From: an uncultured bacterium | GTDB taxonomy: Bacteria > Patescibacteriota > Minisyncoccia > UBA6257 > 2-01-FULL-56-20 | Direction of reading: 5' to 3' | Assembly: GCA_963844965.1 (NCBI GenBank) | Contig: CAWJQC010000006.1 | Span: 1-64,000 of the forward strand | DNA length: 64,000 nucleotides | Shown here: piece after piece, positions 23,388 through 64,000 of the stretch | Layout of the letters: the number at the start of each line of letters is the position of its first letter | How positions within the stretch are numbered: the stretch's first letter is position 1 | Notes under the pieces: model-generated | Told to the model about the DNA's origin: nothing | Databases searched by the model: none | The model's input: the letters and a program-made list of their open reading frames with translations, nothing else | Translations under genes and position numbers: made by a program

Positions 23388-23389
23388 TT

Positions 23390-24367: not shown

Positions 24368-24371
24368 AAAT

Positions 24372-24986: not shown

Positions 24987-25011
24987 CTCTTGTTTCAAAT
25001 CCAAGAACTAT

Positions 25012-27484: not shown

Positions 27485-27488
27485 AAGC

Positions 27489-27863
27489 TTATTTTTTGCC
27501 GGTCCGGCCCTCGTTCCAATCTATCCGTCTCCCCTTTCGCCTCGCTCTTTTTACGGTAAAACCACTAGGATATCTTTTTTCAAGTTTTTTGATATTTTCT
27601 CCCAACACTTCGTCCATGTCCCAGTTAAAATAATTACATATCATGGCGGCGTACCAGAATATATCTCCCAAATTCTCGCGAATGCCGCTCCTCTGATCGT
27701 TCGCGTGACTGAAGGTTTTCTTGATGCAACCGGCGACATCGCCCGCTTCGCCCGCGATTCCCAGTCCCCAAATAAATATTTCTTTTTCTCTGTTCCCAAA
27801 TTTCTTCGCGGTCCTCTTGCAGAGTTTCTGGTATGTTTTTAAGTTGTTCGTTTTTTGGCTCAT
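27489..27863 (-). CDS. MazG-like nucleotide pyrophosphohydrolase
   Basis: GLGIAGEAGDV (the EAGE-type motif). Confidence 0.7.
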   Translation of the reverse strand: MSQKTNNLKTYQKLCKRTAKKFGNREKEIFIWGLGIAGEAGDVAGCIKKTFSHANDQRSGIRENLGDIFWYAAMICNYFNWDMDEVLGENIKKLEKRYPSGFTVKRARRKGRRIDWNEGRTGKK

Positions 27864-27898
27864 GGAATACCGGCTGCCGAAAATAACGGTAATAAAAA

Positions 27899-28802: not shown

Positions 28803-28817
28803 AAAAGAAGAAATGAA

Positions 28818-29081
28818 TTAACGATAAATATCCTTGCGATTTCCGACATCAATCAGATAAACCGCGCCGTCAGGAAGAAATTTGAAGATGGAGCGGTAAT
28901 CTCTGCTTATTCTAAAAGAATAACAACCGGAAAGCTTTCCAGTCAGCGGTTTTGTATGAAGCAGCGGGTGAAATGAATCTGTTGATAAAAGGTCAAGACA
29001 AAATTTAAGCTTCGGCTTTAGTTTGCCCTCCAACCTTTTAGCGGAATTAAGAAAATTATCGCCGAAGATAAGCCGCCGCAT
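28818..29081 (-). CDS. RelE/ParE-family type II toxin
   Basis: YSFRISRDYRSIFKF. Confidence 0.65.
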   Translation of the reverse strand: MRRLIFGDNFLNSAKRLEGKLKPKLKFCLDLLSTDSFHPLLHTKPLTGKLSGCYSFRISRDYRSIFKFLPDGAVYLIDVGNRKDIYR

Positions 29082-29306
29082 CTATCGTGATATTTGGCGC
29101 AAAAAAGTTTTGGGATTATAAGTATAAACCGGTTTTTCTTTCGCCGCTTTCAAAACCTCCTTTACAAATTCTTCTTTGTATTCTCCTTCCGGGTCTTTAA
29201 CGCCATTCAGTAAGATGGGCAATATGAATTCCTGCAGCAATTCCTGTTTAATCTCTTTTTTAAGTTTTTCTAACGTTTTTGTGGACATAGAAAGATAATA
29301 CGCCAA
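29082..29306 (-). CDS. Putative cognate antitoxin
   Basis: Small ORF immediately upstream, abutting the toxin. Confidence 0.35.
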   Translation of the reverse strand: MAYYLSMSTKTLEKLKKEIKQELLQEFILPILLNGVKDPEGEYKEEFVKEVLKAAKEKPVYTYNPKTFLRQISR

Positions 29307-29385
29307 AACAAGCCACGAGTCAATTTCAAATTTTTCTTTGCCTTGCCAGGTGTAGCCTTAGCGAAGCTAGGGCGGCAAATTCTTA

Positions 29386-30063
29386 TTAAATTTTGTCCTT
29401 TTTACCTTGATTGCATTCCCAACACAAAGTTTGTAAATTTTCTATATCACTTTGACCATTCTTTGCGACTGGAGTTTTATGATCAACTTCTAACCGCACT
29501 TTATTATCAACGGAAGGGCTTCTGCCACACTTAACACATCTGTAGTTATCCCTCTTTAGTACGTCCCAGCGGGTTTTCAGAGGTAAAGCGGCCCTCGCCT
29601 GCCTTGAAGCAACATTACCTAATAATTGTTGCTCCGAAATTTCGCCTCTCTTAAAACGAGCGAGTAGAACGCACGCCTTACGTAAACTACCCCATTGCCT
29701 TTGGTAGGGGTTAGTGGAAATCCTGAATCCGTGTTTCGCTATGGAGGGCTGGCCAGGCGGTCTCCCGAGTTCTCGCCAGACAAGTTCTAAATTATCCATG
29801 AGCTCCTGAGGCGAAAATCTACGGGATTTCACTCCAGTTTCAATGCCAATCAATGCGAGCGCTCGGCGCCAGCTCCCGAACCTATTCGAAACGGTCCATG
29901 AATGGCAGACTTTATCTTTCCATCGATCATATTCTCTTGTGGTGAAAGGACGAAGGTTGCGCCTTTGCGCAAAGTCGCGAAGCGAATCGAGGATTTTCTT
30001 ATCAGTGATATGGGTGATCTTCGCATCGAGACGGAATTCAAATTCGTCATTAGACGTAATCAT
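29386..30063 (-). CDS. HNH endonuclease with an N-terminal accessory domain
   Basis: Cys-rich C-terminal region CVKCGR...DHKTPVAKNG...CWECN. Confidence 0.7.
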   Translation of the reverse strand: MITSNDEFEFRLDAKITHITDKKILDSLRDFAQRRNLRPFTTREYDRWKDKVCHSWTVSNRFGSWRRALALIGIETGVKSRRFSPQELMDNLELVWRELGRPPGQPSIAKHGFRISTNPYQRQWGSLRKACVLLARFKRGEISEQQLLGNVASRQARAALPLKTRWDVLKRDNYRCVKCGRSPSVDNKVRLEVDHKTPVAKNGQSDIENLQTLCWECNQGKKDKI

Positions 30064-30174
30064 TTTATTAAATCTTCAATTGAAACGCTCAACGCTTTGG
30101 CGATTTTCGCCATTGCCATCAAGATGGTTTATCAATAACTCCTCTTTTGATTTCTAGGTAAAGAACTCTAGAGG

Positions 30175-30720
30175 TTAGAACTTCACCTGCACCGGCTGCT
30201 TTTCCGCGTCGCTCAAGTCACCGAAAAATTCCATCGGCTTGAAACCGAAAGAGTTGGCTATCAGATTCTTCGGGAAACTTTGGATGGCGATATTGAGGTC
30301 GCGGACACTGCCGTTGTAGAAGCGGCGGGCGGCCTGAATCTTATCTTCGGTATCCGTCAGCCCATCCTGAAGTTTGGCGAAATTCTCGTTCGCCTTCAAT
30401 TGCGGATAGTTCTCGGCGACGGCGAAAAGCGACTTCAAGGCGCCGGAAAGGGCGTCCTCCGCACCAGCTTTTTCCTTGCCCATCGGCGCGCCCATCGCCC
30501 GCGCCCGTGCGGCGGTTACATTTTCAAAAACCTGCTGCTCATGCGTCATATAACCCTTCACGGTCTCAACGAGGTTCGGAATCAAGTCATAACGGCGCTT
30601 CAACTGCACGTCTATGTCCGACCACGCCTCCTGGGTCTGGTTCCTCAAGCGAATCAGCCCGTTGTACGCAAACACAAGCCAAATAACGACTATGACCAAA
30701 ATCACCAGTAACCAAATCAT
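30175..30720 (-). CDS. lemA: LemA-family protein
   Basis: N-terminal TM segment and a conserved LemA core. Confidence 0.8.
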   Translation of the reverse strand: MIWLLVILVIVVIWLVFAYNGLIRLRNQTQEAWSDIDVQLKRRYDLIPNLVETVKGYMTHEQQVFENVTAARARAMGAPMGKEKAGAEDALSGALKSLFAVAENYPQLKANENFAKLQDGLTDTEDKIQAARRFYNGSVRDLNIAIQSFPKNLIANSFGFKPMEFFGDLSDAEKQPVQVKF

Positions 30721-30922
30721 GGATTAATTTGTAATTGTTAATTTATATTATTGCTTTAATTATATAGGTAAAACGAAGCGGGTGCAAACGTTGCTAACTT
30801 GCACCGCCAGTGCCGGCGGAAAACGAACCTGATTCGCGATAACGCTATGCACAGATTAGTTTTCAGTTTTGCAACGGAGTTCGTTTTATTGACCCTTCTC
30901 GGTATCCAAAGGTAAAAGGTCG

Positions 30923-31294
30923 GTGGATGATCTAAATTCAACGCAAAACCAAATGAGACTAGGGATAAAGATTTCCGCTGTTCTGTCGCTGATTTTACCG
31001 TTCGTCGCCTCCGCTCAGCAAAATGTTCCGCCGCCGATGACCGATATATCGGGGTTCGTCGGGCTTATCTGCACCGTGGTTAACTGGCTTTTCACCTTCC
31101 TCATTGTTCTCACGATCCTCTTTATCATCGTCGCGGCGTTCATATACGTTACCGCCGGCGGCGATCCCGAAAAAGTGCGTGGCGCCACGGGTTGGATAAT
31201 TTATGCGGTGGTAGCGATTGTGATCGCAGTCCTCGCTAAAGGTATTCCTTTGATTATCGGCAGCTTCCTTGGCGCTTCGTTCACCGGCTGCTAA
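30923..31294 (+). CDS. VirB2/TrbC-like pilin-family small membrane protein
   Basis: GGDPEKV...IIYAVVAIVIAVLAKG...GASFTGC; paralog of the 59.7-61.7 kb cluster. Confidence 0.55.
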   Translation: MDDLNSTQNQMRLGIKISAVLSLILPFVASAQQNVPPPMTDISGFVGLICTVVNWLFTFLIVLTILFIIVAAFIYVTAGGDPEKVRGATGWIIYAVVAIVIAVLAKGIPLIIGSFLGASFTGC

Positions 31295-31316
31295 AAACTG
31301 CCGCAGCGGCAAAAGC

Positions 31317-31346
31317 AAAAATGGGGCGATTGGCCCCATTTTTTTA
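31317..31346 (+). terminator. Intrinsic terminator (ggggcgattggcccc followed by a T-run)
   Basis: Seen directly. Confidence 0.6.
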
Positions 31347-31383
31347 TTTACCTACACCGGAAATTCGCACCGGCGCACTTAGA

Positions 31384-31956
31384 TTAAATAAGCGCCGACT
31401 GCTGCTTCGCGAATTCAACTTTAATCATCTCACCGGTTTTTTTGTCCGGCACCATAAAAAACCTCTGCTTGCGGTATAAATCGTAAAGCTCCTTGGTTAA
31501 TTTAACGTCGTTCAAACAATACTCCTTAAGCTCTTCCATTTTGCCGTCCCGATAAAGATTGATGGCCTCGGCTCCATGATGTTCCTTCTTCACCCCCAAA
31601 TTCACCTCTGCCAACTTGGACAAGCTTATCCTCTGCCTTGTAGCTAATTCAATTTCTTCCAGCAAGTCCACGCGCTCTTTCTCCCAAATGTTCGGAGTGG
31701 CGGCATTCAGTTTCTGAAAATAGAGATTGAGGACGGGCACGTCGTAGCGGTTCATGCTGAAACCGACAATGCGCCGAGCGGAATTAAAAAGTTCGGACAA
31801 TTTTTCCATCTCCGCTTCTTCAAAACAAAAATATTTGTCGCGAAGGTAAGAATAAACCCCGACAACGGAAATTTTAAGCGCCGCAAAATTGTCCCAGCCA
31901 ACGCCCGGATCGGTGAAAAAATTCTGCGTTTCTATGTCAAAAACCAAAGTGTCCAC
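31384..31956 (-). CDS. DnaQ-like 3'-5' exonuclease
   Basis: VFDIETQ (Exo I) and YCLNDV (Exo III). Confidence 0.65.
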   Translation of the reverse strand: MDTLVFDIETQNFFTDPGVGWDNFAALKISVVGVYSYLRDKYFCFEEAEMEKLSELFNSARRIVGFSMNRYDVPVLNLYFQKLNAATPNIWEKERVDLLEEIELATRQRISLSKLAEVNLGVKKEHHGAEAINLYRDGKMEELKEYCLNDVKLTKELYDLYRKQRFFMVPDKKTGEMIKVEFAKQQSALI

Positions 31957-32027
31957 GTGTAAAAATTTTACAATTTATAATTTCCAATTTTACAAACTCC
32001 ATATTCTGAAAATTGATTGCTCCGCAA

Positions 32028-32531
32028 TCAAACGTGCCTATCCGCCACGTTGGACGCCGCGTAACTTTCGGGCTTCGTCTTCGCTTCAAAATTGTTGGCG
32101 CGGACCATATTCACCACCTCCTGAATCATCACTTTGGTCGGCCCATTTTCGCCAACGTCAACGTGTATCTCAAAACCAAACTTGGGCAGAGGAAACTTAT
32201 TAAGTTCCAGAAGAACGTCCTTCGCGATATCCAGCGAAATCAAAACTTCTTTTATAATCCGGTCACGGAGCGTGTGCAGTTTGTCATGGCTCACCCTGCG
32301 CCAAAAATACCGTCCGCCGTTTCCCACCCGATGCACAACGACCGCGGTGACAAAATCGGCCTTGTTGTTCTCGTAAAGCTCGGAGTCCGTCCCGATCGTA
32401 ACTTTGTAATACCTGCCGGAATCGGCACGCATGAAGTTCACAATTTCCCGCACGACTTCGGCGGCGGTCAGTTTCAAGCCGAGTGAACTATATAAAAATT
32501 CGGGCATCCCATACACTATAAGACCGACCAC
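32028..32531 (-). CDS. YkuK/DUF458-family RNase H-like protein
   Basis: IGTDSE...FVTAVVVH...NGGRYF. Confidence 0.5.
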   Translation of the reverse strand: MVGLIVYGMPEFLYSSLGLKLTAAEVVREIVNFMRADSGRYYKVTIGTDSELYENNKADFVTAVVVHRVGNGGRYFWRRVSHDKLHTLRDRIIKEVLISLDIAKDVLLELNKFPLPKFGFEIHVDVGENGPTKVMIQEVVNMVRANNFEAKTKPESYAASNVADRHV

Positions 32532-33090
32532 TGTTTTTTGTCAATCACCGCGGGCTAAAGCCCGCGGCTTGTGTTCGGCTCCTGTTCCCACTGGTTTCTG
32601 ATATATTCTCTCATCGCTTTTTCGTTTTGACGGCCAACGGTTTCGGCAAAGTAACCATCCTGCCACAAGCTGTCTCCCCAGAGGAATTCTTCCAGCTCGG
32701 GAAATTCTTTTCTGACAGCCCTGGACGTACCGCCTTTGAGATAAAACACCGCTTTGGCAACCGTCAGGGTAGCAGGAATTTGAAGCAATAGATGGACATG
32801 GTCGGGCATTATCTGCGCTTCATGGATGAACCATTTATTCATCTTGGCGGCTTGAAAGAACAATGTCTTGAGTCGCCCGACCATGTCCCCTCGCAGTATC
32901 GAGCGGCGGTACTTTGGGCAGAAAACAACGTGGTACAAACATCGCGTATAGCTGTGGTTGCTTGGCCAGAATCCAGAGGGCATTATCTTCATTATCGCAC
33001 CGGCAGAAACCAGTGGGAACAGGCAAATAAGCCCTCCGCCCCTCGCTTCGCTCGGGGCTACGGGGTCGCCTTATCCTCGGCCTAAAGGCC
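32524..33090. mobile_element. IS200/IS605-family element (tnpA only) with subterminal hairpins
   Basis: Hairpins ccgcgggctaaagcccgcgg (32542-32561) and ggcctaaaggcc (~33075); 20-bp inverted repeats at 32563-32585 and 32999-33020. Confidence 0.5.
32555..32992 (-). CDS. tnpA: IS200-like Y1 (HUH) transposase
   Basis: YHVVFCPKYRR and the HVHLLL (HuH) motif. Confidence 0.85.
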   Translation of the reverse strand: MKIMPSGFWPSNHSYTRCLYHVVFCPKYRRSILRGDMVGRLKTLFFQAAKMNKWFIHEAQIMPDHVHLLLQIPATLTVAKAVFYLKGGTSRAVRKEFPELEEFLWGDSLWQDGYFAETVGRQNEKAMREYIRNQWEQEPNTSRGL

Positions 33091-41073: not shown

Positions 41074-44000
41074 TTACATGGTCGGCATCGGCACGTTCTT
41101 GTCAACAACGTCACCGACAACCTCTCCCACTGCACACTCCTTGGCAACGCTCCACGGCATTCCCGTCCTCTTTACGGTCTCGCGAAGAGCCGCCTCAAAG
41201 ATCCCTTCTTTGTAATTCTGGACGTCTTCAACCCTCGGACCAATTCCATAGCCATAAGGACCTCCCCAGCCGCCGTAAAGACTGCCGCCTATGCCCATTC
41301 GCCCGCCCATAAAACCGCGGTAGAACATGCCCCCGCCGTATCCTGTGCCATATACTTGCGGCTGTCCAAAATCAATGACCGAAGAAGACGACTTGAGGAA
41401 ATTCTTGGCGCTGTGCAAGAAATGATGACCCAATAATTTTCCCACTTTCATATGTTTTATGGCGTCATAATCCTGGAGTGTCATGCCGACCTTATCCGTT
41501 ACTTTAATCTTATCCAAAATCTCTGTCTGGAGATATTCTACGCGCGCCCTGAAGAGCGGCGTGTTCTCAGTATCGTTCAGCATCGCTTCGTACCAATTTT
41601 TAAGCGCGTGGTTGGATGTTTTCTTGACCAACTTGGCCAATCCATCCACGGTTTGGCTCTGTTCAGAGAAACTGGCGTGCGAAAATTCGCCTTCCATGTG
41701 GTTCTGGATATTGGCCTCAAAGTAAGCGAGAGCTTCGCCGCTCAACTTATGCGCCTCGGCGGATTTCATTTGGTTGGCCACATCAACAATGCTTTGAGAT
41801 TTTGAGAAGACACCGTTCAGATAATTGTCTATCGCGGCCCTCTGTGCCGGCGCGATTCCCCTCACTGCTTCTGCAGCCGCTTCGGCATGCAGAACGGGCG
41901 CGGCTTCGGCTCCCGGCGCCGTCATTTCCGTTTGTGGCGCAACCTCGTGGAACTTCGGCAATAACCTCCATAAGTTCCATTCCTCGCCTATACGTATACG
42001 CAACTCCGGCGCACAACTGGATCTTTCGCAAAATTTCCTATAAGATGGGAGCACCAATCCTTAAGCGAGGGGTCTGAAGATCTGACAAGAAAGCGGAGCA
42101 TTCCCTCATACATTTGTTGCTGCTCGGAAAAACTGCCGTGAGTAAACTTGTCTGCGATTTCCTGGATATTCTTATCCTCAAAATATTTCTGGGACGCGCT
42201 GTCCAATGTGTGCGCCGCCTGAAACTTCTCCAGGCTGTTTAAATGGTCATGCCAATCGGTAAATTTACGCGCATACTCAAAATACTGGTCTATTCCCGCC
42301 TTCATATTCGGGGCGTGCGCAATCCGAGCTGCCATTTCGTCGGGAGAAATCGTTCCGACGCCGCTCGCGTGCGCCGCCTCGGCGCCGGTCGGATGCGTCA
42401 CGGGGACTTCCGCTGTCGGATGAGCGCCGACAGCCGCTCCGTGCTCCGCCAATTTTCCGACGATAAGCTGTTTATGACCCGTGGCTTTCAGAAGCCAATC
42501 CGGCACGGGCTTATGCCCCTTCACGAACGCTTTATAAAGATCCTCATTGGTGCCGAAACGCAAATTTTTGGCATAATTGACAACTTCAAAATGTCCGCCT
42601 TGTGCGTCCGGCGTGAAAATAATCTGGTCATGCGCGTGGCTCAGGCCAACTTCGTTTATGGGAACCTTTATGCCGTTTATCTCCACAGTGGAATGCGCCC
42701 AAGCGTGCCTGAACTGTTCCTCATTTAAAGCCCTGCCGACAAACGAATGCGCCGCCTTCCAAATATTTCCTCCTTTCTCAATCGTCGCGACGTTGTGCGA
42801 CTCTTTGGCCACAGCTTCAAGATGCGAAGCTAACTTTGCGCCAGTGGGAATTTCGTGCTTTACGGCTGCGGCTTCCACCGCGAGCTTCGCAGCCGCGCCC
42901 TTATGCACCGCTGCCCCCGCACGCTTTACCCCGCTGTGTTCTTTCTCCCAAGCGGACCTCAGAAAATCGTAAGTGGCGCCCAATCTTTGCTTGAGCTCCA
43001 GCTTGCCAGACAGATAATCAACGGGGTGGATCCCGGTCATATCGGCGACGTTCCTGATAGCCAAGGCGGACGCGCCGGAACCAACCACCAATCCCGCCGC
43101 CCCCGCAAACAACCACCGGCGCTGTTTCAAGCGGCGCTCTTTTTCGCGCAAAGATGCTTCGCTGGATTCAAATTCTTTCAGCATGGCCGCATCCTCGCTT
43201 TTCAAAAACTGCGCCAGTCCTTCGGCAACCTTTCCTTTTTCGATTTTTTCCATAGCCTCGCCAATCTTGGAACCAATTAGGTGCTCGAGCTCCTTGGCGA
43301 TTTTTTGCTCGTGCCCTTTCCGCATGCCCTTCTCCAGGGCTACAGCGAGAGACGCGCCGCTCATCACTCTCAACGCAGCGATGCCTGCCCCACCCGACAA
43401 CGAACCGACCGCGACAGATATCACAACCTTCTTTTTCCAATCTACCTTGCCGTACCAATTCACGAAGTCATAGATCTTTTCTCTATATTTGTGCAGTTTT
43501 TTATTTTCCTCGATCTCCAGTGCCGTCTTCGTGTCGTAAAGCTGCTTGAATTCGCCGACCAGACCGAAGGTGGTAAATTTTTTAATCTCAGCTTCTTTCT
43601 CTTCCGCGGCAAACTCTCCGGCTTTGATTTTCCCATCAGCTTCTTTTTCAAAGAAACTCAATTTGTATTCAAACTCCTGCTTGCGCGCTTCCAAATATTC
43701 TTTTTGCGCCGCTTCCAGTCCTGTTTTCAATTTTTCCGCCTCTGCCCTCTCCTCCGGTTTTTTGCTTCCTTCAAGTTTTTTAATTTTGCGGCTTAGCTCA
43801 GCGTACTTCGCGCGCTCCTCGCCTAGATTTTTCTCTAATGCTTCGTATTTTTTGCGCTCCTCGCGCTCTTCCGGCGTTTCCGGCACTTTTTCTTTTTTGG
43901 CTTTCTCCTTGTCTCCGGCTTTTTCCTTGGCCCGAACTCCTCCCTCGGTCAGAACTGGCTCTTTTTCTGCAACTATTCCTTCTGCCGGTTTGGCCTCCGT

Positions 44001-45014
44001 TTTTTGACCGGCTGGTTGACCACCTTCGGACATGGCAACCTTAAGTCTGGCAATCAAATCCTCTGGCCGTCCTTTTTTTACTTCATCCTCAGTTGCCACT
44101 CCCAAAGTCAACAATACATGTTCCAATTTCTTACTTATAAAAGCTGGCACACCGCCCTTGTCCGTCGCGCTCAAAATTTCTCTCGCAATTTGCTTGGCTC
44201 GTTCAGCTTCTTTATCCTCAACAACCACCTGCTTCTGTTCCTTCTTTACAACGCCAGGCGCCCCTTCCTGCGCAAGCGGAACTTCGCCGGCTTCCGTTTC
44301 CGGTCTAGCTTCGGACCTGCTCGCTAACTTTTCCCTAATTATTGCGTACAATTCGTTTGGTGATTTCCCTTGTAATTCCGTGTCGCGGAATCCATAGGCT
44401 CTGAGAATTTCCTCTGCCCGCCTCGGCTGATACGATAAACCAGTATCTATTTCCGACAAAAGGCGGCGCGCGGCTTCGTCTGCCTGCTCTTCCAATGTTT
44501 TCGCCGGCGGCAGCTCAACGGCATATAACTCAGCCGACGGTTTTTCTCCGATTTCCGTCTCCGCAACCGCTTGTTTGACCTCTGCCGGCGCGGTTTCCAC
44601 GGGTGACTTCAGCGCGGTCAAAGCTTCTTTTGAGAATTGCTCCAGCTCTGCTTCGGAGATGCTCCCCTTCTCCTGGAGTTTAGCGGCCTCCTGCATAATT
44701 TCGTCATCGCGCACGTAATAATCTTCTTCGGAGAATTCCTGCTTTCCGTAAAAAGCTTCTGGAGCTCGTTGCGCTGGGAGCGAAGATCTTAACAATTCTG
44801 ATTTCTTCTCGGCTGGCGTAGGCACCACCTCCTGTGCCCGTTCCGTTTCCGACATCACAACTTTTCCGACGCTTTCCGGCACTGGAGCTTCCGCGGCAGG
44901 TTGTGCCGACTCGGCTCCCAAATCTAAATCAAGAATCTTATCGATTCTCTTGGGTCCTTCGGAGGTCGAGACGGCTTTTTTCTTCGCATGTCCCTCACCA
45001 AAAAGTTTTGCCAC
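41074..45014 (-). CDS. Large (~1300 aa) coiled-coil / charged-repeat protein with a Gly/Tyr-rich tail; probably one gene split by a frameshift near 42000
   Basis: ORFs 41988..45014 and 41074..42057 overlap; EK-rich coiled-coil segments; GYGGGMFYRGFMGG tail. Confidence 0.5.
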
Positions 45015-45765: not shown

Positions 45766-47948
45766 ATGGCAAAAAGAAACGGCAAAAAGGAACGTAAAGA
45801 AAAAAACAATAGAAATGACGCGCGGCGCGAACCGCCGCGCGAAGAACGGCTCCATCCCGACACGAAAAAAAGCATCTGGGCGATAACTTTTTTGGGTCTC
45901 GCTGTTATTTTCACCCTGGCCGCCTTCGCTAAAGCGGGACCTTTCGGCGACTTTCTGCACGGAATATTCGCAACGCTTTTCGGAGCCGGCTACTTCATGC
46001 TGCCCCTCGGCCTCACACTCGCCGCGGCCATCCTGCTCCTCACAGAAAGGCAAAGGGTCGTTGGCATTACAACGCTCGGCGCCGCGCTTATAGTTTGCTC
46101 GGCGCTCGGGCTCATAGAACTTGCCTCCGCCGGCAAGGGCGGCTGGCTCGGCCTCGTTTTCGGCTCTCTTAGATTGCCGTTCGGGACAACGGCGGCCGTG
46201 GTATTGAACATCGCGATTCTTGTAATCGGCATCCTCATTACCGTCAATATCCCACTCAAGCTCAGAAGACAGAGGAAAGATCTGGCCGCTGGCGAGGAAG
46301 GGAAAACGCTCGTGGTCACCGGCGAAGAGGCGGATGAACGACAAGAGACAGGCGGCAAAGGACAAGGGACAAGTGGCGAAAAGACAAAGGATGCGGAAAC
46401 CGAAAGAAACGCAAGTAAAGCCGAGATCGTTGAAAACGCCGCGCTCGCCGTGGAACCGAAAAAGGTCAGTCCGCCAAAATTCGCGGACTACATCCCGCCG
46501 CCACTCTCGCTCCTCAAATCCACCGGCGAGAAACCGACGACCGGCGACCTTCTCGCGAACGCCAACGTAATCAAGCGCACGCTTGATTCTTTCGGCATCG
46601 CGGTGGAAATGGGCGAAATAAACGTGGGGCCGGCCGTGACACGCTACACACTGAAACCGGCGGAGGGAATGAAGCTCTCGCGCATTGAGGCGTTGCACAA
46701 TGATCTGGCGCTGGCCTTGGCCGCGCACCCGATAAGAATAGAGGCGCCGATTCCTGGAAAATCTTTGGTTGGGATTGAAGTGCCGAACAAAGCCGCCGCG
46801 CTCGTGCGGCTCGGCAGTTTAATGACCTATCCGGAATTCCAAAAATCCGGTCCCTTGGGCTTCGTCCTCGGCCGCGACGTCTCCGGCAATCCGGTCTTCG
46901 CCGATATAGAAAAGATGCCGCACATGCTCGTCGCCGGCGCGACCGGTTCGGGAAAATCCATTCTGATACATTCGCTTCTTGTATCGCTTTTGTACAAAAA
47001 CTCACCCGCCACGCTTAAACTCATCCTCATAGACCCGAAACGCGTTGAACTTTCGGTTTACGACCATATACCGCATTTAGTGGGTCCCGTAATCATGGAA
47101 AGCAAAAAGGCGCTTGGCGTTTTCCGCTGGGCAATAAACGAAATGGAACGGAGATATGACCTACTTCTCCATGCCGGCAGCCGCGACATCAAAAGCTACA
47201 ACCAAAACGGCGGTAAGGACGAACCGCTCCCCTACCTTCTTATAGTCATAGACGAACTCGCGGATATGATGGCTTCATACGGCCGCGAAGTTGAGGGCTC
47301 AATCGTGCGTTTGGCACAGATGGCGCGGGCGACGGGCTTCATCTCATACTCTCAACGCAAAGGCCGTCGGTTGAAGTTATCACGGGGCTCATCAAGGCGA
47401 ACATCACGTCCCGCGCGGCGCTGCAGGTCGCAAGCCAAGTTGACTCACGGACAATATTGGATATGGGCGGCGCGGAAAAACTTCTGGGCCACGGCGACTT
47501 GCTTTATGTTTCTTCGGAACTTTCAAAACCCAAGAGAATCCAGGGCTCTTACATCACGGAGGAAGAGATAAATAAGGTGGCGGACTTCATACGCGACAAC
47601 AACATCCCGGACATAACCGGAATGACCAGCTTCGCGCCTGCCGCGGATTCGGAGCCAGACGAGAAAGGCGGGGGCGGAATGTTTGATGAATACCTTGAAG
47701 ATGAGGATGACGAACTGTATGATGAGGCGGTTGAAGTCGTGCGCGAGGCGAAAAAAGCATCGGCTTCGCTCCTCCAGCGGCGGCTCAAGGTCGGCTATGC
47801 CCGGGCCGCGCGGCTTCTGGACATTATGGAGGGGCGCGGCATTATCGGGCCGGGCGAAGGCGCGAAACCACGGGATGTTTATTTAGAAAAAATACCTGGA
47901 GGCCATGACGCCACCGGCTACGGAAACGAAGCCGGCGAAGAAGAATGA
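45766..47948 (+). CDS. ftsK: DNA translocase FtsK (frameshift ~47335, G-run)
   Basis: N-terminal TM segments, Walker A GATGSGKS, winged-helix gamma domain SLLQRRLKVGYARAARLLDIMEGRGIIG. Confidence 0.85.
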
Positions 47949-54867: not shown

Positions 54868-54960
54868 ACGACACCTCCGAAACTATAAGCTACCGACATC
54901 TTATCATAAACTAACTACTGCGTCAAGCCGGCTGGCTGGGCTAGACCGTGCCGTGCCAAC

Positions 54961-57135
54961 CACTATTGCAATTGTTTTATGGACAGCCCGATTCTGCCGT
55001 CTTCGTCGGCACGTATTATCTTTGCGCGGACGAAATCGCCCACCTTAACTACTTCGGTGACAGTTTTAACATAGCCGTTTTTAAGTTCGGAAACGTGGAT
55101 CATCCCGTCGCGACCGCCGCCCAAATCCACTATCGCGCCGAAATCCAGGGTTTTTATAACCGTTCCCTCAATGATGTCGCCGATCTTATATTCTTTGGTA
55201 AGCGCCGTGATTTCCGCGACCGCCGCGTCCGCCTTCGCGACATCCGGCCCGAGACGAACACGCCGCCGTCTTCCTCCACGTCAATACTCGTAAGCCCGTA
55301 TTTCGCGATCAAACCGTTGATCATCTTGCCGCCGGGACCGATAAGCGCGCCGATCTTCGACGGATCGATCTTAAGCTGGCGGATTATCGGGACGTACTTT
55401 GACAACTGCGGCCGCGGCTTGGCGATAACGGATCATCATGTATTTCAAGAATCTCAAGCCGCGCTTTCTTCGCCTGCTCAAGCGCTCTTTCCAGCATTTC
55501 GTGCGTCAAACCGTCAACTTTCACGTCCATCTGCAAGGCGTTCACGCCGTCTTCCGTACCAGCAGCCTTCAGATCCATGTCACCGTGATGGTCTTCCGGA
55601 CCCTGGATGTCGGTCAAAATCTTATATATATCCTTTCCGCCAAAGGCGGATCCGCCTTTGGCGGACATCATTAGCCCCATTGCCGTGCCCGCCGCCGGTT
55701 TTTTTATCGGCACACCAGCGTCCATAAGCGACAGAATGGAAGCGCAAACGGTCGCCATTGACGACGAACCGTTTGAGGACAAAATTTCGGAAACAACGCG
55801 GATCGTGTATGGAAATTCTTCTTTAGGAGGTATAAGGGGCTCAATTGCTTTACGCGCCAAATTGCCGTGGCCGATCTCTCTCCTGCCCGGACCGCGGAAA
55901 GCGCCGATTTCTCCGACCGAATATGGCGGGAAATTGTAATGCAGCATAAAACGCCGCTTGCCGGTCATTTCCATCGTCTCTATGAACTGCTCCTGCCCCG
56001 GAGGAGCGAGTGTCGTTATCCCCAAAGCATGCGTGTTTCCCCGCATGAATAAGGCCGACCCGTGCGTGCGCGGGAAAAGCCCGACTTCGGCGTTAAGTGC
56101 GCGTACTTCATCAAGCCGCCTGCCGTCGGGACGCTTTTCTTTTTCCAAAATATTCTTGTGGACAAGTTCGTTTATCGCTTCCTCAAATAAATAGTCCGCG
56201 TCCTTGAGGATGTGTTCTTCTCCGCCAAAGGCGAATCCCTGCCCGCCGGCAGGCGTGGCGCCTCTGGCGGAAAAATGCTCTTTGACATGCGCGCGCAATT
56301 CCTCGCGCAGTTTCCCAGTGGCGCCCGAAAATTCAACCTTGGTCTGTCTGTATACCGCTTCCTCAAGTTTGTCCGATAAGAATTTTTTAACCATAACCTT
56401 CAGCGGTTCGTCAAATTCGTGCAATATAAGCCCCTCTTTGGGCTTGCCGATCTCCTTTATTATCTTTTTCTGGAATTCTATCAGCTTGTCGTTCTCTTTC
56501 TGCGCCAGCGCGAACGCCGCGAGTATGTCTTTTTCGCCTGCCTCGTCGCCGCCAAGTTCTATCATGTTTATCCTTCCCAAAGAACCGGCGAGGAAGGCAT
56601 CAAACTTCGGTTTCGTTTCTTTTATTTCCGAATTTGTCGGATTGATGGCGAACCTGTCGCCGAACTGCGCCACGCGGACGCCGGCGACGGGACCTCCCCA
56701 GGGAATGTCGGAAATACCGAGCGCGGTTGAAGCGCCCGCGAGTCCCACGAATTCCGGGTCGTTCTCTTCGTCGTAAGCGAGAACGGTCACGACCACCTGG
56801 ATTTCGCGCCTGATGCGCTGGTCAAAAAGCGGGCGGATCGTTCTGTCAACCGTCCGTCCCGCCAAAATCGCGTCTTCTGACGGCCGTGATTCGCGGCGTA
56901 TGAAACGGCTGCCGATTATTTTTCCGGCGGCGTAAAATCTTTCCTCATAATCCACGCGGAGCGGCATATAATCCGCGTCAATGTCCTCTTTGGACATTAC
57001 AACGGTCGTGAGCACCGCCGTCTCGCCGTACTGTGCCAAAACAGCCGCGTTCGCTTGTTCGGCAATCGGCGAAATTTCAAGCGTCAAAGTTTTACCACCG
57101 ACATCGGTGGTGAATTTTTTGCGTGGTATTGGCAT
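54961..57135 (-). CDS. pnp: Polynucleotide phosphorylase (the KH and S1 domains are in shifted frames)
   Basis: Two RNase PH domains in ORF 55384..57135, a KH domain (IGPGGKMINGL) in ORF 55154..55405, and an S1 domain encoded at 54961-55150. Confidence 0.85.
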
Positions 57136-59636: not shown

Positions 59637-59683
59637 CAAAAGCCCCCTCCGGCGCAAGGCCGAAGGGGGCTTTTTTCTTTTCT
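59637..59683. terminator. Bidirectional intrinsic terminator (gccccctccggcgcaaggccgaagggggc flanked by A/T runs)
   Basis: Seen directly, immediately 3' of the pilin gene at 59707. Confidence 0.6.
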
Positions 59684-59706
59684 GATTTAATCTCTAAATC
59701 AGAAAT

Positions 59707-60048
59707 TTAGCAGCCGGTGAACGAAGCGCCGAGGAAGCTGCCGATGATCAGAGGAACGCCCTTCGCGAGAACGGCGATGACCACGGCGACTACGGCGTAG
59801 ATAAGCGTGCTCGAAGCGCCCTTAACCTTCTCCGGATCGCCAGAGGCAGTCAAATACTTGTAGGCGGCGACGAGTATGAAAACAATCGCCAAAACGACGA
59901 GAAGCGTGAAAAGCCAGTTGACGGCGGTGCAGATAAGCGCGATAAATCCGGTTAAGCTCGTAACGGTCGTCGGCGCTGTCTGTTGGGTCCCGCCACAAAA
60001 GGCAGGGTCAACCCCAAAACCAGCGATTTTATTGACTTCATGTTAAGA
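59707..60048 (-). CDS. VirB2/TrbC-like pilin-family protein (frameshift ~59960; the N-terminal signal peptide is in another frame)
   Basis: C-terminus SGDPEKVKGASSTLIYAVVAVVIAVLAKGVPLIIGSFLGASFTGC; the upstream frame encodes MKSIKSLVLGLTLPFVAG and ICTAVNWLFTLLVVLAIVF. Confidence 0.55.
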
Positions 60049-60131
60049 ATTCGGTATTGACCGGAATAATGTTTTTTTTCGACCTTTCTCCTTATATAAA
60101 AAGCATAGCACAAACCATGCAACACTACAAC

Positions 60132-60518
60132 CTAAGGACATAACGCTACCGCTGCCGAGTTCGCACCAAAGATATTAAGAACAATCAGCGGTACGGATTT
60201 CGCAAGCAATGCCACCACCAAGCCAACCACGGCGTAGGTAAGCATCTTCGTGGCTTCGCTTACTTTGGTCGGGTCGCCGGAAGAGGTCATATACTTATAC
60301 GCCGCGACAAGCACCAAAAGTATGACCAATGCCATGAGAATGTACCACATCCAGAAAGCAACCTCGCAAATCACATTGTCAATAAGCTGATCTGGAGTGC
60401 TATATGTCGGTACGGGAATTACCGATTGTGCGAAAACCTTATTCGCAGAAAGGAGCAGCAACTGGGATAGAAGCAGAACACCATACCGATATTTCACGGC
60501 TGAAAATAAATTTTTCAT
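60132..60518 (-). CDS. VirB2/TrbC-like pilin-family protein
   Basis: SGDPTKVSEATKMLTYAVVGLVVALLAKS. Confidence 0.6.
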   Translation of the reverse strand: MKNLFSAVKYRYGVLLLSQLLLLSANKVFAQSVIPVPTYSTPDQLIDNVICEVAFWMWYILMALVILLVLVAAYKYMTSSGDPTKVSEATKMLTYAVVGLVVALLAKSVPLIVLNIFGANSAAVALCP

Positions 60519-60644
60519 ACAATATTTTTTAACTTTATAACCGGCTGAAACGCTTATTTTCGGCCTTTTACGTTGTCTTTATCATACCACAAACTCCGAG
60601 AATTGCACTGGGGATAAAGGTGCTGCTTAACCTACCGCACCACC

Positions 60645-60992
60645 TCAACAGCCTCCACTGACGCTACTGGCACCGACTATACTGGCGACTATTGACGGGA
60701 CGGACTTCGCGAGAATTGCCACAATGATGCCTGCAGCGGCATAAGCAAGCGTCTTATGCGCCGAACTCACTCTTTCTGCGTTATCGCCGCCGGTAACATA
60801 GAGAAACCCGGCGTAAATTATCATAATCACGGAAAGCGCCATCAGAATGTAAAACATGGCAACGGCGATCGGGCAGAGAATTTTACTGGTAATATCCGAA
60901 ACGCCGCCGCTGAAAGTTATGCCGGAAACGTCGGCATAAGCGCCGCTTACGCCAAAAAGTTTCAGGAAACCGAGAATCAAAACCGGCGACAT
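60645..60992 (-). CDS. VirB2/TrbC-like pilin-family protein
   Basis: GGDNAERVSSAHKTLAYAAAGIIVAILAKS. Confidence 0.6.
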   Translation of the reverse strand: MSPVLILGFLKLFGVSGAYADVSGITFSGGVSDITSKILCPIAVAMFYILMALSVIMIIYAGFLYVTGGDNAERVSSAHKTLAYAAAGIIVAILAKSVPSIVASIVGASSVSGGC

Positions 60993-61092
60993 TATGGTCC
61001 TCGTTTTCGGCGAGTTTCACAATGTAATTAACTATTTTCATAGTCCTTTCCTGCCTATTAATTTTAACACACCGGGCAAGTTATAAAACTAT

Positions 61093-61659
61093 TCACCCCC
61101 CGACCCCGAAAATCGCCTGGATAAGGCTGACCACGCCTTTCGCCGCGAGAACCGCCACAAAACCGATGGCCGCGTAAAGAATCGTGTTCCTGCCGTTCTT
61201 GAACTTTTCCGGATTGCCGCCGGCGGTTATTATCTGGAATCCGCCGTAAAGAACCATAATGGCGACTATGGGAACGGCTATCGTGATCAAAAGGTCAATG
61301 ATCTTATTGGCACAATCCGTGATGGTTGAGCACGCGCCCTGGAGAGGATTGGTAAGCGAGCCGCTGAGAGTCACGTTGCTGCCGGGTGATTGACCACTTG
61401 GCGACTGACCGCTGGGTGATTGACCGCTTGGCGACTGACCGCTGGGTGATTGACCGCCAGGCGTGCTCGCAGTCCATTGGCAAGCACCATTACCACCGAA
61501 AGCGCCAACACACGCACTCTGGGTCGTATAAAGCGTGCAGTTGGCGGACTGACAGTTCGCGCCAGTAGTATCTTGGGTACAAGTACCTCCGCTACACGCA
61601 GCAGTGCATGAAGCGACAGTATAAGAACAGCCACCAGTGCTGCAGTAATATGGCGTCAC
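61093..61659 (-). CDS. VirB2/TrbC-like pilin-family protein with a Cys-rich N-terminal region and a (SPSGQ)5 tandem repeat
   Basis: GGNPEKFKNGRNTILYAAIGFVAVLAAKG; a 15-nt tandem repeat at ~61375-61450. Confidence 0.6.
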   Translation of the reverse strand: MTPYYCSTGGCSYTVASCTAACSGGTCTQDTTGANCQSANCTLYTTQSACVGAFGGNGACQWTASTPGGQSPSGQSPSGQSPSGQSPSGQSPGSNVTLSGSLTNPLQGACSTITDCANKIIDLLITIAVPIVAIMVLYGGFQIITAGGNPEKFKNGRNTILYAAIGFVAVLAAKGVVSLIQAIFGVGG

Positions 61660-62819
61660 GGCGCTACACGTGCCGCCGCTGGTGCCAGCAGGCGATGTTG
61701 TAACACATTCACCGGTAGTAGTATTGCAGTAGGGGGCGTTACTGTATGCAGCGGCGCACTGACTGTTGCTGCTACACCCAACGCATGCATTATTAACGCA
61801 GATGGGCTGGGTCTCGACCGTGCATTTGGTGCTATCAGTGCCACAGCCGCTCGGCGCGGTCGTAACACATTCACCGGTAGTAGTATCGCAGTAGGGAGCA
61901 TTACTATATGCAGCGGCGCACTGACTATTACTGCTACATGCAGAGCATATATTATTGACGCAGATAGGTGCCGTCTCGCTCGTACAAATACACTACTATC
62001 ACCACTGCAACTGGTCGGCGAGGTTGTGACACATTCACCGGTATTAGTATTGCAGTAAGGAGCATTACTATATGCAGCGGCGCACTGACTATTACTGCTA
62101 CACCCAACGCACGTGCCACTAGAGCCACAGATGGGCTGGGTCTCGCTCGTGCATTGACTGCTATCGGTGCAGCTACCGCCGCCGCTGCATTGATTGGTGC
62201 TCGGCAAGCCGGGCGCCAGACAGCCCGAAGAACCATACCAGCCGCATCCCGCACTACAGCAGGTAGGTTGATCAATGCAATTACTGCAACTGGATAAGTT
62301 ACACGAACTGCCGCCGGTGCTCGCATTGCATACTTGCCCGCCGGCGCAACCACTATCGGAGCTGCAGGAGTTGCCAACGCCGCTACTATTGGCGTTATTT
62401 GACAGACAACTGCCAATCTGGGGGGATGCCACCGCGCAAGTGCAACCGACCCCAGTATAACAATTTCCCGCCGGCGAAGCGGAAGCGCAACTGCAAGTAA
62501 CCCCATCAGAATTAGTATTGCATACCTGGCCACCAGCGCAGCCGGAGTCGGTCGTGCAGTTTCCGCCGCCGTTGGATGGGTTGCAAGACACGGAACAATT
62601 ACTATCGGAGTAAGCGTTGGTTCCACAGCCTGCTGGATCTAAACAATTACCGGCCAGACAGTCATCGTTCGTCATGCAACTCGAACCGCAGGCTTCATAG
62701 AACGTACTGGGACAGGCCTGCGCGTGACTTACAGATGGTCGGCCAAAACCGAAAATAAAAGCGGCGATGACCACAAAAGCGAAAATCAGAAGCCGCTTCT
62801 TCATAATTTTATTATACAT
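61656..62819 (-). CDS. Secreted Cys-rich repeat protein (three ~165-nt tandem repeats; frameshifted)
   Basis: Signal peptide; repeated GNCTTDSGCAGGQVCN modules; repeat units start at ~61690, ~61866 and ~62030. Confidence 0.5.
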   Translation of the reverse strand: MYNKIMKKRLLIFAFVVIAAFIFGFGRPSVSHAQACPSTFYEACGSSCMTNDDCLAGNCLDPAGCGTNAYSDSNCSVSCNPSNGGGNCTTDSGCAGGQVCNTNSDGVTCSCASASPAGNCYTGVGCTCAVASPQIGSCLSNNANSSGVGNSCSSDSGCAGGQVCNASTGGSSCNLSSCSNCIDQPTCCSAGCGWYGSSGCLAPGLPSTNQCSGGGSCTDSSQCTSETQPICGSSGTCVGCSSNSQCAAAYSNAPYCNTNTGECVTTSPTSCSGDSSVFVRARRHLSASIIYALHVAVIVSAPLHIVMLPTAILLPVNVLRPRRAAVALIAPNARSRPSPSALIMHALGVAATVSAPLHTVTPPTAILLPVNVLQHRLLAPAAARVAP

Positions 62820-62828
62820 TATTTGGCG

Positions 62829-63347
62829 CTATTCGGGCAGAAACTTAGACCATAGTCCTTGCCAGACAGAGCTTTCGTTAACGAAAGCTGGCACCGTCAG
62901 GGCGACTTTCAATAGGCAGGCCTGCGGCTGCGTAATACCCAGGGCGCTGAGAAAATCAGATTCCGCCCGACTGCGCACTTCGTTGAAAGGATTGTTAAGT
63001 ATAGTGATGAGGAAGCTGCTGTCAGCAGGAAAGTAAAGAATGTGGTAATCTCCGGTGCTTCTGAACAAAACATAATCACCCGCTTCTACTCTCACGGCAT
63101 TTTTATAGGGATTTTTTACTTCCACGCTGCCGTTGGGCGTACCGATGGTAATCGTATCTCCCTCGGGGACGGGGATTGGCGGCGGAGGAGGCGTTGGTGA
63201 CGTGGGCGGGGAAATCGGCGGCAAGCCGCCGGGACCGGTACTTCCGGCAGGAGAGGTCTTGTTCCTGACAACCAAAACGACAACTACTCCGACGACTAGC
63301 ACAAGAAAAATTACCGCTATAATAATTATTCTTCTCGTTTTTAACAT
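62829..63347 (-). CDS. Membrane-anchored Pro-rich hypothetical protein
   Basis: N-terminal TM segment and PPISPPTSPTPPPPPIP. Confidence 0.45.
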   Translation of the reverse strand: MLKTRRIIIIAVIFLVLVVGVVVVLVVRNKTSPAGSTGPGGLPPISPPTSPTPPPPPIPVPEGDTITIGTPNGSVEVKNPYKNAVRVEAGDYVLFRSTGDYHILYFPADSSFLITILNNPFNEVRSRAESDFLSALGITQPQACLLKVALTVPAFVNESSVWQGLWSKFLPE

Positions 63348-64000
63348 GATAACTTATGAGGACTTGGCGGGGTGAAATTGCATGTGCAGTTCACACTCCA
63401 GTTATCCCATGCCCGGGAATTGGCGGCAAGGGGACAAGCAGCGTTAATATTCGGGCTCGATTTTGTGGCGTCGGTGACACACTTTTTATACAGTGATGTA
63501 TTTACAACCTGACAATGGTAAACATGGTTTGTGCTGTCCCACTGAGCTGCGTGGTTAAAGGCGCTGGGACAGCCATCGCCGTTCACGTCATTTACGGTCA
63601 GGTTGATTTGGAACAGTCCCCACGAGAAAACACTGTTATCTTCCGCGCACTTATCCGACGTGCTCGGCGCCGTAGGATCGCCGCCACTTTCCTTGCTGGC
63701 AATGGAGGAAGCGTCATACGGACCATTACCGATACCGCCGAAACACGAACTGTTGAGGTTGTCTTGTGAAGCATCGCCGCTTGTAAGTGGCGCGCAATTT
63801 CCACTTGAATTGTTGCACGGACTGCCCGGATCGCAACTGCCCGGATAGCAATTTGAGGTTCCTCCGGCATTACTTTGACAATCTGCCTGGCTTGAGTAAT
63901 TAGCTACACACATATTTCCGGCGGCTGATACCTGACACAGTTGGTAAGATGTAGAGCCTCCGCTCGCCGTCGGCGCCGCCACCTGTACCGAAACACCAGG
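63341..64000 (-). CDS. Cys-rich protein with a lytic-transglycosylase (SLT)-like motif, partial (N-terminus beyond the window end)
   Basis: ESGGDP...SVFSWGLFQIN. Confidence 0.45.
   Translation of the reverse strand, partial: PGVSVQVAAPTASGGSTSYQLCQVSAAGNMCVANYSSQADCQSNAGGTSNCYPGSCDPGSPCNNSSGNCAPLTSGDASQDNLNSSCFGGIGNGPYDASSIASKESGGDPTAPSTSDKCAEDNSVFSWGLFQINLTVNDVNGDGCPSAFNHAAQWDSTNHVYHCQVVNTSLYKKCVTDATKSSPNINAACPLAANSRAWDNWSVNCTCNFTPPSPHKLSC

Follow-up and report, generated by a model that had tools for sequence, protein, structure and literature searches.

The window examined here is the whole stretch of 64,000 nt from an uncultured Patescibacteria (CPR) bacterium, and all the genes of the cluster described below are located on its minus strand. 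The cluster is the distal part of one minus-strand operon ending at a strong terminator, and its order is pilin-lysozyme chimera, partner protein W, Cys-rich-ectodomain-pilin chimera, three small pilins and terminator (Table 1). The initial annotation had the small pilins followed by the larger genes; since the whole cluster is on the minus strand, the large genes precede the small pilins and not the reverse. W overlaps both of its neighbours, at its start with the stop of the preceding gene and at its stop with the ATG of the following one (TAATG). The same operon order was found with intact genes in two related loci (L003 and L001), orthologous arrays are present in L001, L003, L004, L007, L015 and L019, and the related loci are all Patescibacteria MAGs.

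Table 1. Features of the pilin-domain operon and of its solitary paralog, by position in the window
Feature	Position	Strand	Support
Solitary paralog of the last pilin, adjoins mobile-element genes	30923-31294	+	Pfam PF18895, 33 bits
Intrinsic terminator hairpin, 16 bp with 10 GC pairs, then T-run; operon end	59638-59674	-	
Small pilin, ~111 aa (MKSIKSLVLGLTLPFVAG...FTGC), assembly indel near 59986-59990	59707-60042	-	
Small pilin, 128 aa; signal peptide, Cys before TM1, GDPTKV loop, C-terminal Cys	60132-60518	-	Pfam PF18895, 42 bits
Small pilin, listed ORF of 115 aa from 60992	60645-61041	-	Pfam PF18895, 35 bits
Cys-rich-ectodomain-pilin chimera, a single ~575-aa gene: signal peptide, ectodomain of ~490 aa with 62 Cys, (SPSGQ)5 linker, C-terminal PF18895 hairpin	61093-62819	-	
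PF18895 hairpin of the Cys-rich chimera	61120-61326	-	Pfam E 4e-12, 46.5 bits vs 26.6
In-frame 15-nt x 4.9 repeat, (SPSGQ)5 linker from ectodomain to pilin hairpin	61384-61457	-	TRF
Three tandem ~54-aa Cys-rich units (C..S.C..E..PIC....C..CS.NSQCAAAYSNAPYC.T.TGECV) in the ectodomain	61691-62150	-	
W: N-terminal TM anchor, Pro-rich linker, ~100-aa outside domain with two invariant Cys	62819-63347	-	
Pilin-lysozyme chimera, C-terminal 219 aa (3' part) of 341-aa P0003: Cys-rich linker and lysozyme-fold (SLT_3-like) domain	63341-64000	-	

Five ORFs of the window scored above the gathering cut-off (26.6 bits) of the Pfam T4SS_pilin HMM (PF18895), with E values from 4e-12 to 5e-8. The scores within the cluster were 33.7 bits (59707-59892), 42.0 bits (60132-60518), 35.0 bits (60645-60992) and 46.5 bits (61093-61659), and those outside these four ORFs were 33.3 bits for 30923-31294 and 34.5 bits for P0003. 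As read from an alignment of 13 sequences, the pilins begin with a Sec signal peptide and continue with two hydrophobic helices joined by a short polar loop, and the small pilins of this clade carry one Cys ahead of TM1 and another at the C-terminus. TrbC/VirB2 (PF04956) scored 21.3, 17.9 and 18.3 bits (E 3e-4 to 4e-3), below its cut-off of 27.9, and this relation is resemblance, not membership, while the mycoplasma ICE pilin-like family (NF045849) gave sub-threshold matches of 18 to 31 bits in comparison to a cut-off of 40. The original reading of these genes, as pilin paralogs of the VirB2/TrbC-like type in an episymbiotic (CPR) bacterium with a small genome, was supported by the PF18895 matches, by the origin of the related loci and by arrays in the literature (PMC12102498 and PMC10633639). 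The fifth paralog proposed at 30923 was also confirmed, and it shares 74% nucleotide identity over 262 aligned bases and 68% amino acid identity with the last pilin, while the common GDPEKV core that had been described is exact in only two paralogs.

The gene models had to be corrected in several places. The Cys-rich chimera is split in the assembly by a 1-nt indel at the T-run 61986-61988 (three-frame translation). The frame of 61093-61659 is open back to 61992 (stop-to-stop frame 61096-61992) and joins a 387-aa ORF, and intact orthologues span both halves (P0002, 398 aa; L003, 510 aa), so a separate pilin gene at 61093-61659 was rejected. The four co-oriented pilins of the initial annotation are thus four PF18895 ORFs, one of which is part of a larger gene, and the 15-nt repeat reported for it is present without marking a gene of its own. 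Similarly, the Cys-rich secreted protein has its three tandem repeats but is itself the pilin-domain chimera, the protein with a lytic-transglycosylase motif (ES...GLFQIN) is the C-terminal part of another pilin chimera instead of a separate companion, and the Pro-rich anchored protein is the listed 172-aa, Pro-rich, TM-anchored ORF of W. A frameshift lies near 62880 in W, and the corrected C-terminus reads ...LSGKDYGLSFCPNSAK. A complete 61-aa pilin was rejected as well, this ORF being a fragment of the full gene at 59707-60042, whose intact orthologues are 76% (L003) and 68% (L001) identical. For the 115-aa pilin, the coding sequence probably begins with the ATG at 61041 (MKIVNYIVKLA...) and is frameshifted near 61000; the N-terminus in the other frame agrees with those of the homologues, and a ribosome-binding site (AGGAAAGGA) precedes 61041.

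The repeat in the ectodomain of the Cys-rich chimera has a period of 162 nt and 2.6 copies at 61691-62111 (TRF, score 542, 81% matches), and a repeat search gave three 134-nt copies with spacings of 162 and 164 nt and 72% to 82% identity, the spacing of 164 nt instead of 165 nt marking the indel site. Repeat-length variation, suggested by the initial annotation, was compared between species: in relatives the position of the (SPSGQ)5 linker is taken by poly-Gly (23 residues) or by Gly/Thr- or Pro/Gly-rich tracts, with L035 and L036 carrying a poly-Gly or Gly-rich tract. The hairpin is 60% to 76% identical to that of the orthologues, in comparison to 30% to 36% for the whole protein, which is mostly ectodomain, and this fast-evolving chimera is a candidate for a role in host recognition.

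The SLT-like ORF remains open as far as base 64000 and corresponds to residues 123-341 of P0003, whose N-terminus is a PF18895 domain; the signal peptide and hairpin are lost beyond the window edge. Its C-terminal domain has a lysozyme fold with an invariant Glu, the predicted catalytic residue, in KESGG, together with the motif SWGLFQINLT. Across 41 sequences E45 is invariant and S46 and D57 are nearly so, and the Glu sits at the end of the first long helix (E-S motif), as the lysozyme-like superfamily requires. The window domain scored 18 bits against SLT_3 (PF18896), below the Pfam cut-off of 27, while three of five homologues matched at E <= 0.01 (best 4e-6) and the relative L012 reached 37.3 bits. 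Among 157 classified sequences (150 best representatives and seven earlier hits), 56 have the pilin+SLT architecture and 14 have two to four tandem pilin domains per chain; further chimeras among the relatives join the pilin to a C39-like peptidase or carry an M15-like motif. W is a member of an uncharacterised family, with no sequence relatives in Pfam, NCBIfam or PDB, and it is a conserved partner of the hydrolase gene, located within 100 nt downstream and in the same orientation in 27 of 34 related loci. It also follows hydrolases with unrelated catalytic domains (SLT_3 and the M15-like motif), which argues against a simple active-site inhibitor.

VirB4 (P-loop_TraG, CagE_TrbE_VirB) is located just upstream of the SLT+W module in 8 of 31 genome loci. 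The search for VirB4/VirD4 or type IV pilus ATPases that the initial annotation had proposed was run on the 64-kb window and found none: VirB4 had no match in a six-frame scan with an HMM built from three Pfam-verified relatives, and VirD4 and PilB/PilT were absent from the window as well. The P-loop proteins of the window are only FtsK, RecA and one terminase-like protein (judged from sequence), and its large ORFs belong to other Pfam families or to none. Since VirB4, VirD4, VirB6 and PrgI were found neither in the window nor at the syntenic locus L001, this genome is tied to a T4SS by homology alone. PMC12102498 reports 441 VirB2 arrays of 2-11 genes in Patescibacteria, an array being 2-11 pilin genes in tandem or with one non-pilin gene between, and the region 59707-64000 is of this kind, with five pilin-domain genes (P0003 counted) and W as the sole non-pilin gene.

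It is likely that the region encodes a VirB2-like (PF18895) pilin array of the CPR, T4SS-linked kind. Each protein would be exported by Sec and lose its signal peptide, and the two-helix hairpin would lie in the membrane with its two termini facing out and its short charged loop (GDPEKV-type) facing in. A T4SS driven by VirB4, with its genes elsewhere, would then pull the hairpins out and polymerise a short pilus or conduit where the cell meets its host bacterium, with the small divergent pilins serving as major subunits, either as alternatives or in mixture. As both termini point outward in known VirB2/TraA pili, the fused domains would be exposed at the surface. The lysozyme domain may cut peptidoglycan, either the bacterium's own (the VirB1 role) or the host's, and the fast-evolving Cys-rich domain may be an adhesin or host-recognition module, while W, anchored on the outside and coupled in translation to the hydrolase, would most likely regulate or restrain that enzyme. 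Bulky fusions and tandem hairpins may not fit a helical pilus, which speaks against the pilus model. In the literature cited here, no VirB2-type pilus is reported to have been directly observed in Patescibacteria, and a 2025 review goes no further than a 'potential to elaborate conjugative pili'. A bolder and doubtful extension is that in many Patescibacteria the 'missing VirB1' is a divergent, disulfide-rich SLT_3 lysozyme domain (with M15-like and C39-like peptidases) carried on a VirB2-like pilin, that a dedicated, membrane-tethered W paired with each such gene guards the producer wall, and that the pilus bears its own wall-cutters, with which to breach the host bacterium, and hypervariable adhesins rich in Cys, with which to recognise it.

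Compatible with the pilus model, the pilin-lysozyme chimera and W may form an effector-immunity pair, in which the lysozyme, delivered to the wall of the host bacterium or kept pressed to it, opens that wall and W shields the producer peptidoglycan. We regard this as rather unlikely, for the fold-level pattern of W is unchanged beside the unrelated catalytic domains, which is unusual for a specific immunity protein, and no similarity was detected between W and known lysozyme inhibitors or T6SS immunity proteins.

Somewhat less probable still is a T4SS-independent operon in which the PF18895 hairpin is a mere membrane anchor and the surface enzymes, adhesins and small membrane proteins never polymerise. 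The fusion of the hairpin to many outside domains (lysozyme, C39-like peptidase, M15-like motif and Cys-rich modules), its occurrence in two to four copies in one chain, and the absence of T4SS genes near the array in the window, L001 and L003 would all agree with such an anchor. However, PMC12102498 places a pilin gene near virB4 in 1135 of 1948 assemblies carrying both VirB4 and VirB2-like pilins, and PMC10633639 reports that in S. epibionticum the pilin array in the T4SS cluster is essential, as is the machinery itself, along with the lysozyme/M15 genes flanking virB4. The SLT+W module directly after virB4 in the loci mentioned above also points to a T4SS, and the small pilins without a fused domain have no evident anchor role.

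Decay of the cluster, with real frameshifts in an operon of pseudogenes or phase-variable genes, is very unlikely. Four of the six cluster genes are frameshifted within 4.3 kb (the last pilin, probably the 115-aa pilin, W and the Cys-rich chimera) and the deposited protein P0001 is a frameshifted product, as decay would predict; however, PNPase, with at least two frame changes, and FtsK, which appears split (judged from overlapping ORFs), are broken alike. At least six frameshifts in about 9 kb, housekeeping PNPase included, point to an assembly prone to errors and not to pseudogenes. The three indels that could be placed to the base lie in or beside homopolymers of 3-4 nt, a length insufficient for phase variation, and both sides of each shift are stop-free and conserved relative to orthologues. 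The window also starts with a 3.3-kb near-perfect palindrome that looks like a long-read foldback artefact. Finally, that these small, secreted, hydrophobic proteins are pilins of type IV pili (T4P/T2SS-type), by which CPR bacteria attach to hosts (PMC11623550), is highly improbable, as they have no N_methyl (PF07963) or class III signal-peptide match in Pfam, carry ordinary Sec signals with AxA sites and two TM helices instead of one in the mature protein, and have no PilB/PilT in the window.

VirB2-like pilin arrays in Patescibacteria are known already, described in 2023-2025; what is new here is that two pilins form part of larger fusions, of which one carries a cell-wall-cutting lysozyme domain and the other a large surface domain rich in cysteine. 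Pilin-hydrolase fusions, Cys-rich-pilin fusions and the W partner were not found in the searchable literature. The one Patescibacterium amenable to genetics cannot live as an epibiont without its T4SS and pilin array, and VirB1 is absent from most pilin-bearing genomes according to PMC12102498. The SLT_3-type domain, frequently joined to a pilin hairpin, with W next to it in most of the related loci (27 of 34) and directly behind virB4 in some lineages, is a concrete candidate for the missing VirB1 function. Both the VirB1 and the host-recognition ideas are testable in cultivated Saccharibacteria. For annotation, the case shows how genes of this kind, broken by homopolymer indels in long-read MAGs, come to look like a 'secreted protein plus pilin' pair, which is misleading.

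In comparison to known systems, the Mbov_0395-family mycoplasma ICE pilin-like protein (NF045849) shares an origin in a monoderm, MPF-FATA-type system and gave the top NCBIfam match to each of the seven scanned proteins apart from W, but its relationship to them is distant only. The TrbC/VirB2 pilins (PF04956; T-pilin, RP4 TrbC, F TraA) share the signal peptide, the two-helix hairpin, the short charged loop and termini expected outward, whereas the window proteins score only 18-21 bits in comparison to the required 27.9 and show no evidence of cyclisation, the small pilins of this clade having instead the two Cys noted above. VirB1-type hydrolases (Agrobacterium VirB1; two-domain pIP501 TraG; SEML1_0006/0007 of S. 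epibionticum) are alike in the lysozyme/SLT fold, catalytic-type Glu and genetic tie to a T4SS, the last seen in the 8 of 31 relatives with the domain directly after virB4; the window domain, in contrast, is of a divergent SLT_3-like type (PF18896) with eight Cys, c-type lysozyme being the nearest solved fold, and it is fused to a pilin hairpin and accompanied by W. The closest parallel is with the Patescibacteria VirB2 arrays (Quinonero-Coronel et al. 2025, PMC12102498; SEML1_0014-0019, Wang et al. 2023, PMC10633639). The window array differs from these in not lying beside virB4 and in its two large chimeras, the extracts of both papers describing small pilins only, but it shares with them divergent tandem PF18895 genes, one non-pilin interruption and a CPR host. 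A pilin gene adjoins rpsO (S15) in the window, as it does in Southlakia epibionticum (SEML1_0024/0025; PMC10633639).

The pilin cluster and its tandem repeats, both of which had been proposed in the initial annotation, were borne out: the matches to PF18895 (T4SS_pilin, a two-helix hairpin) in the window had Pfam E-values of 4e-12 to 5e-8, and these values together with the TRF scores of the two repeats (see the table) place the observation well beyond chance, and it is therefore regarded as real. All ORFs in the cluster are on the minus strand. The four cluster pilin frames also matched TrbC/VirB2 (PF04956), with sub-threshold Pfam scores only, while the top NCBIfam match for all pilin domains of the window was NF045849, the Mbov_0395 pilin-like conjugal transfer protein of mycoplasma ICEs, again sub-threshold (E 1e-7 to 2e-3).

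Positions of features in the window
Feature	Position	Strand	Support or remark
PF18895 T4SS_pilin ORF	59707-59892	-	above Pfam gathering score
PF18895 T4SS_pilin ORF	60132-60518	-	above Pfam gathering score
PF18895 T4SS_pilin ORF	60645-60992	-	above Pfam gathering score
PF18895 T4SS_pilin frame	61093-61659	-	above Pfam gathering score
PF18895 paralog	30923-31294	+	above Pfam gathering score
15-nt repeat, 4.9 copies	61384-61457		TRF, score 141
162-nt repeat, 2.6 copies	61691-62111		TRF, score 542
Serine recombinase-like N-termini, two ORFs	20907-22349, 24898-25725		by eye
tRNA-Ser	26534-26619		
IS200-like Y1 transposase	32555-32992		
Surface-type protein, 1617 aa	33300-38153		six Big_7 Ig domains, SH3_3 and fn3
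Surface-type protein, 577 aa	48797-50530		three fn3 domains and a peptidoglycan-binding domain

Although the pilin call was real and correctly sensed, the gene models drawn around it were wrong, because of assembly indels and the window edge: the Cys-rich protein and the 188-aa pilin, annotated separately, belong to one gene, and the SLT-like protein is cut by the window edge. Three-frame translation showed that the 387-aa Cys-rich ORF loses its sensible frame after CSGDSSVF, and that the Cys-rich repeat goes on in a second frame, free of stops, into the 188-aa pilin ORF. The shift was placed at a run of T (61986-61988), where the repeat spacing is 164 nt rather than 165 nt. In the homologue search, P0001 (on a 122,013-nt contig) proved to be the deposited frameshifted product of this gene, while the intact 398-aa homologue P0002 resembles the Cys-rich ORF at its N-terminus and the pilin ORF at its C-terminus, and a closer relative, locus L003, carries an intact orthologue of 510 aa. 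The open frame across the shift and these two intact orthologues therefore identify the two ORFs as a single gene of about 575 aa. In its product, an (SPSGQ)5 linker connects a 490-aa ectodomain holding 62 Cys, preceded by a signal peptide, to a pilin hairpin at the C-terminus. Identity to the orthologues was 30-36% over the whole protein, which is mostly ectodomain, whereas it was 60-76% over the hairpin; judged by these values, evolution of the ectodomain is much faster than that of the hairpin anchor. At the linker position the relatives have unrelated low-complexity tracts, such as poly-Gly in locus L035, and a fast ectodomain with a variable linker would be compatible with a role in host recognition. 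The orthologue in L003 (2369-3901) has two hairpins, and PF18895 hairpins were found two to four times in tandem within other single chains (P0013, P0016 and others).

Similar corrections applied to other genes. The 61-aa pilin fragment joins a signal peptide, MKSIKSLVLGLTLPFVAG, located in another frame, and shows 68-76% identity to intact orthologues; for the 115-aa pilin, a start at 61041 together with one further shift near 61000 is probable. W, the Pro-rich TM-anchored protein encoded beside the hydrolase, has a frameshift near 62880; after correction, its C-terminus (...LSGKDYGLSFCPNSAK) agrees with the family consensus and its stop codon overlaps the ATG of the next gene. Outside the cluster, PNPase (54870-57135) showed at least two frame changes before its KH and S1 domains, and FtsK (45766-47948) was apparently split into overlapping ORFs. 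Three indels were resolved to the base, within or beside homopolymers of 3-4 nt, and the indel rate was about 1 per kb; the assembly is thus error-prone and the ORF-based annotation of the record unreliable. The contig also begins (1-3365) with a near-perfect palindrome of 3.3 kb centred near 1710. Its arms, at about 1-1703 and 1717-3365, show 93-100% complementarity, in blocks interrupted by small indels. It could be a true inverted duplication, but its appearance suggests a foldback or missed-adapter artefact of long reads at the contig end, and we read the frameshifts, the homopolymer indels and the palindrome together as long-read assembly errors rather than gene decay.

The second chimera joins a pilin hairpin to a lysozyme-like domain (resembling SLT_3, PF18896). 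With its 341-aa full-length representative P0003 as query, an exhaustive phmmer search returned 16,075 representatives at E <= 1e-3, and the best 150 of these plus seven earlier matches were classified by architecture: 56 had pilin plus SLT, 14 had two to four tandem hairpins, and 10 had the SLT domain with no hairpin, in some cases at the end of proteins of about 1000 aa. When one genome per species was scanned, 31 loci were found, most of them named as Patescibacteria lineages. An initial genome-contig scan with the window fragment as query and an initial metagenome scan with the whole chimera gave no match, and neither did exact look-ups of W, the 128-aa and 115-aa pilins, P0001 and the full-length P0003 in the contig index. 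In L003, the pilin-lysozyme protein is 74% identical to that of the window, and L003 shares with another related locus, L001, the order Cys-rich-tailed pilin, pilin-hydrolase, W, Cys-rich-pilin and three to four small pilins; the genes after the array in L001, namely rpsO, an NYN-domain gene and PNPase, are the same as in the window. The orthologous gene in L001 has its lysozyme domain replaced by an M15-like one. Such further hairpin fusions to domains of the wall-hydrolase type comprise an M15/LAS-like motif, HxxGxAxD...HxH/D, in L001 (8419-9351) and in L027 (8243-9220), with W next in both, and a Peptidase_C39_2 domain in L024 (8684-9706).

In 27 of 34 loci, our own HMMs found a W homologue no more than 100 nt downstream of the hydrolase gene and in the same orientation. 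W belongs to no Pfam or NCBIfam family, and PDB profile searches with W and with the SLT domain gave chance-level matches only; identity with VirB8 was considered and rejected on the likely strand/helix order in an alignment read by eye. An AF2 model built for full-length P0003 on 5 sequences reached a pLDDT of 51 and was set aside as poor. W faces outward, is translationally coupled and carries a conserved Cys pair; our best guess is that it may regulate the hydrolase or hold it in check. In a distant relative, L002, a DsbA/thioredoxin-like gene (11539-12246) lies directly 3' of the pilin-SLT and W pair, which agrees with a disulfide need of Cys-rich exported proteins.

Scanning the window in six frames with the VirB4 HMM gave no match; FtsK, RecA and one protein judged terminase-like by eye are the window's only P-loop proteins. 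Among the 31 genome loci, 8 have a VirB4 ATPase (P-loop_TraG, CagE_TrbE_VirB) upstream of the SLT-W pair. What the analysis shows is the assignment to families, the lysozyme fold, the conservation of the operon and, in some lineages, the virB4 link. As a mechanism, we propose that the chains would be exported by Sec, that the hairpins would then lie in the membrane, both of their ends on the outer side, and that a T4SS encoded elsewhere would polymerise them. Both pilin termini point outward in the F- and T-pilus structures, and N- or C-terminal fusions would therefore decorate the surface; the lysozyme domain would fit a VirB1 role or an attack on the host wall. The small pilins of the clade comprising the window, L001, L003 and L004 have exactly two Cys, just before TM1 and at the extreme C-terminus, a pair conserved in this clade only and absent from the pilins of L015 and L019. 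Both are predicted to lie outside, and may form a disulfide tying the termini, like the cyclisation in VirB2/TrbC.

Elsewhere in the window, the stretch at about 19000-33000 has lower GC (0.41-0.47) and is possibly an integrated mobile element; the solitary pilin paralog is located within it, as are the two serine recombinase-like ORFs, tRNA-Ser and the IS200-like Y1 transposase of the table. The 1617-aa and 577-aa surface-type proteins are candidates for host contact. Two neighbouring ORFs on the minus strand (41074-45014), 327 and 1008 aa long, had no Pfam match at E <= 0.01.

PF18895 arrays of 2-11 genes have been published for Patescibacteria (PMC12102498), and the array itself is therefore of a known kind. 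In S. epibionticum, according to PMC10633639, the array is essential, lysozyme-like and M15B genes adjoin virB4, and a pilin adjoins rpsO, as in the window cluster. PF18896 was not used in the 2025 survey (PMC12102498), whose conclusion was that VirB1 is missing from most pilin-bearing genomes; no mention of PF18896 was found in the searchable literature. The same survey describes the MPF-FATA class as having no VirB2-like pilins; the sub-threshold NF045849 match hints that this lineage already had a pilin-like subunit. The pilin-hydrolase and Cys-rich-pilin chimeras, and W as a partner, appear to be variants not described before, although the combination of domains can already be seen in precomputed Pfam annotation. 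Together with the SLT_3-W module, the chimeras offer leads that can be tested on the way in which the T4SS of CPR bacteria handles cell walls.
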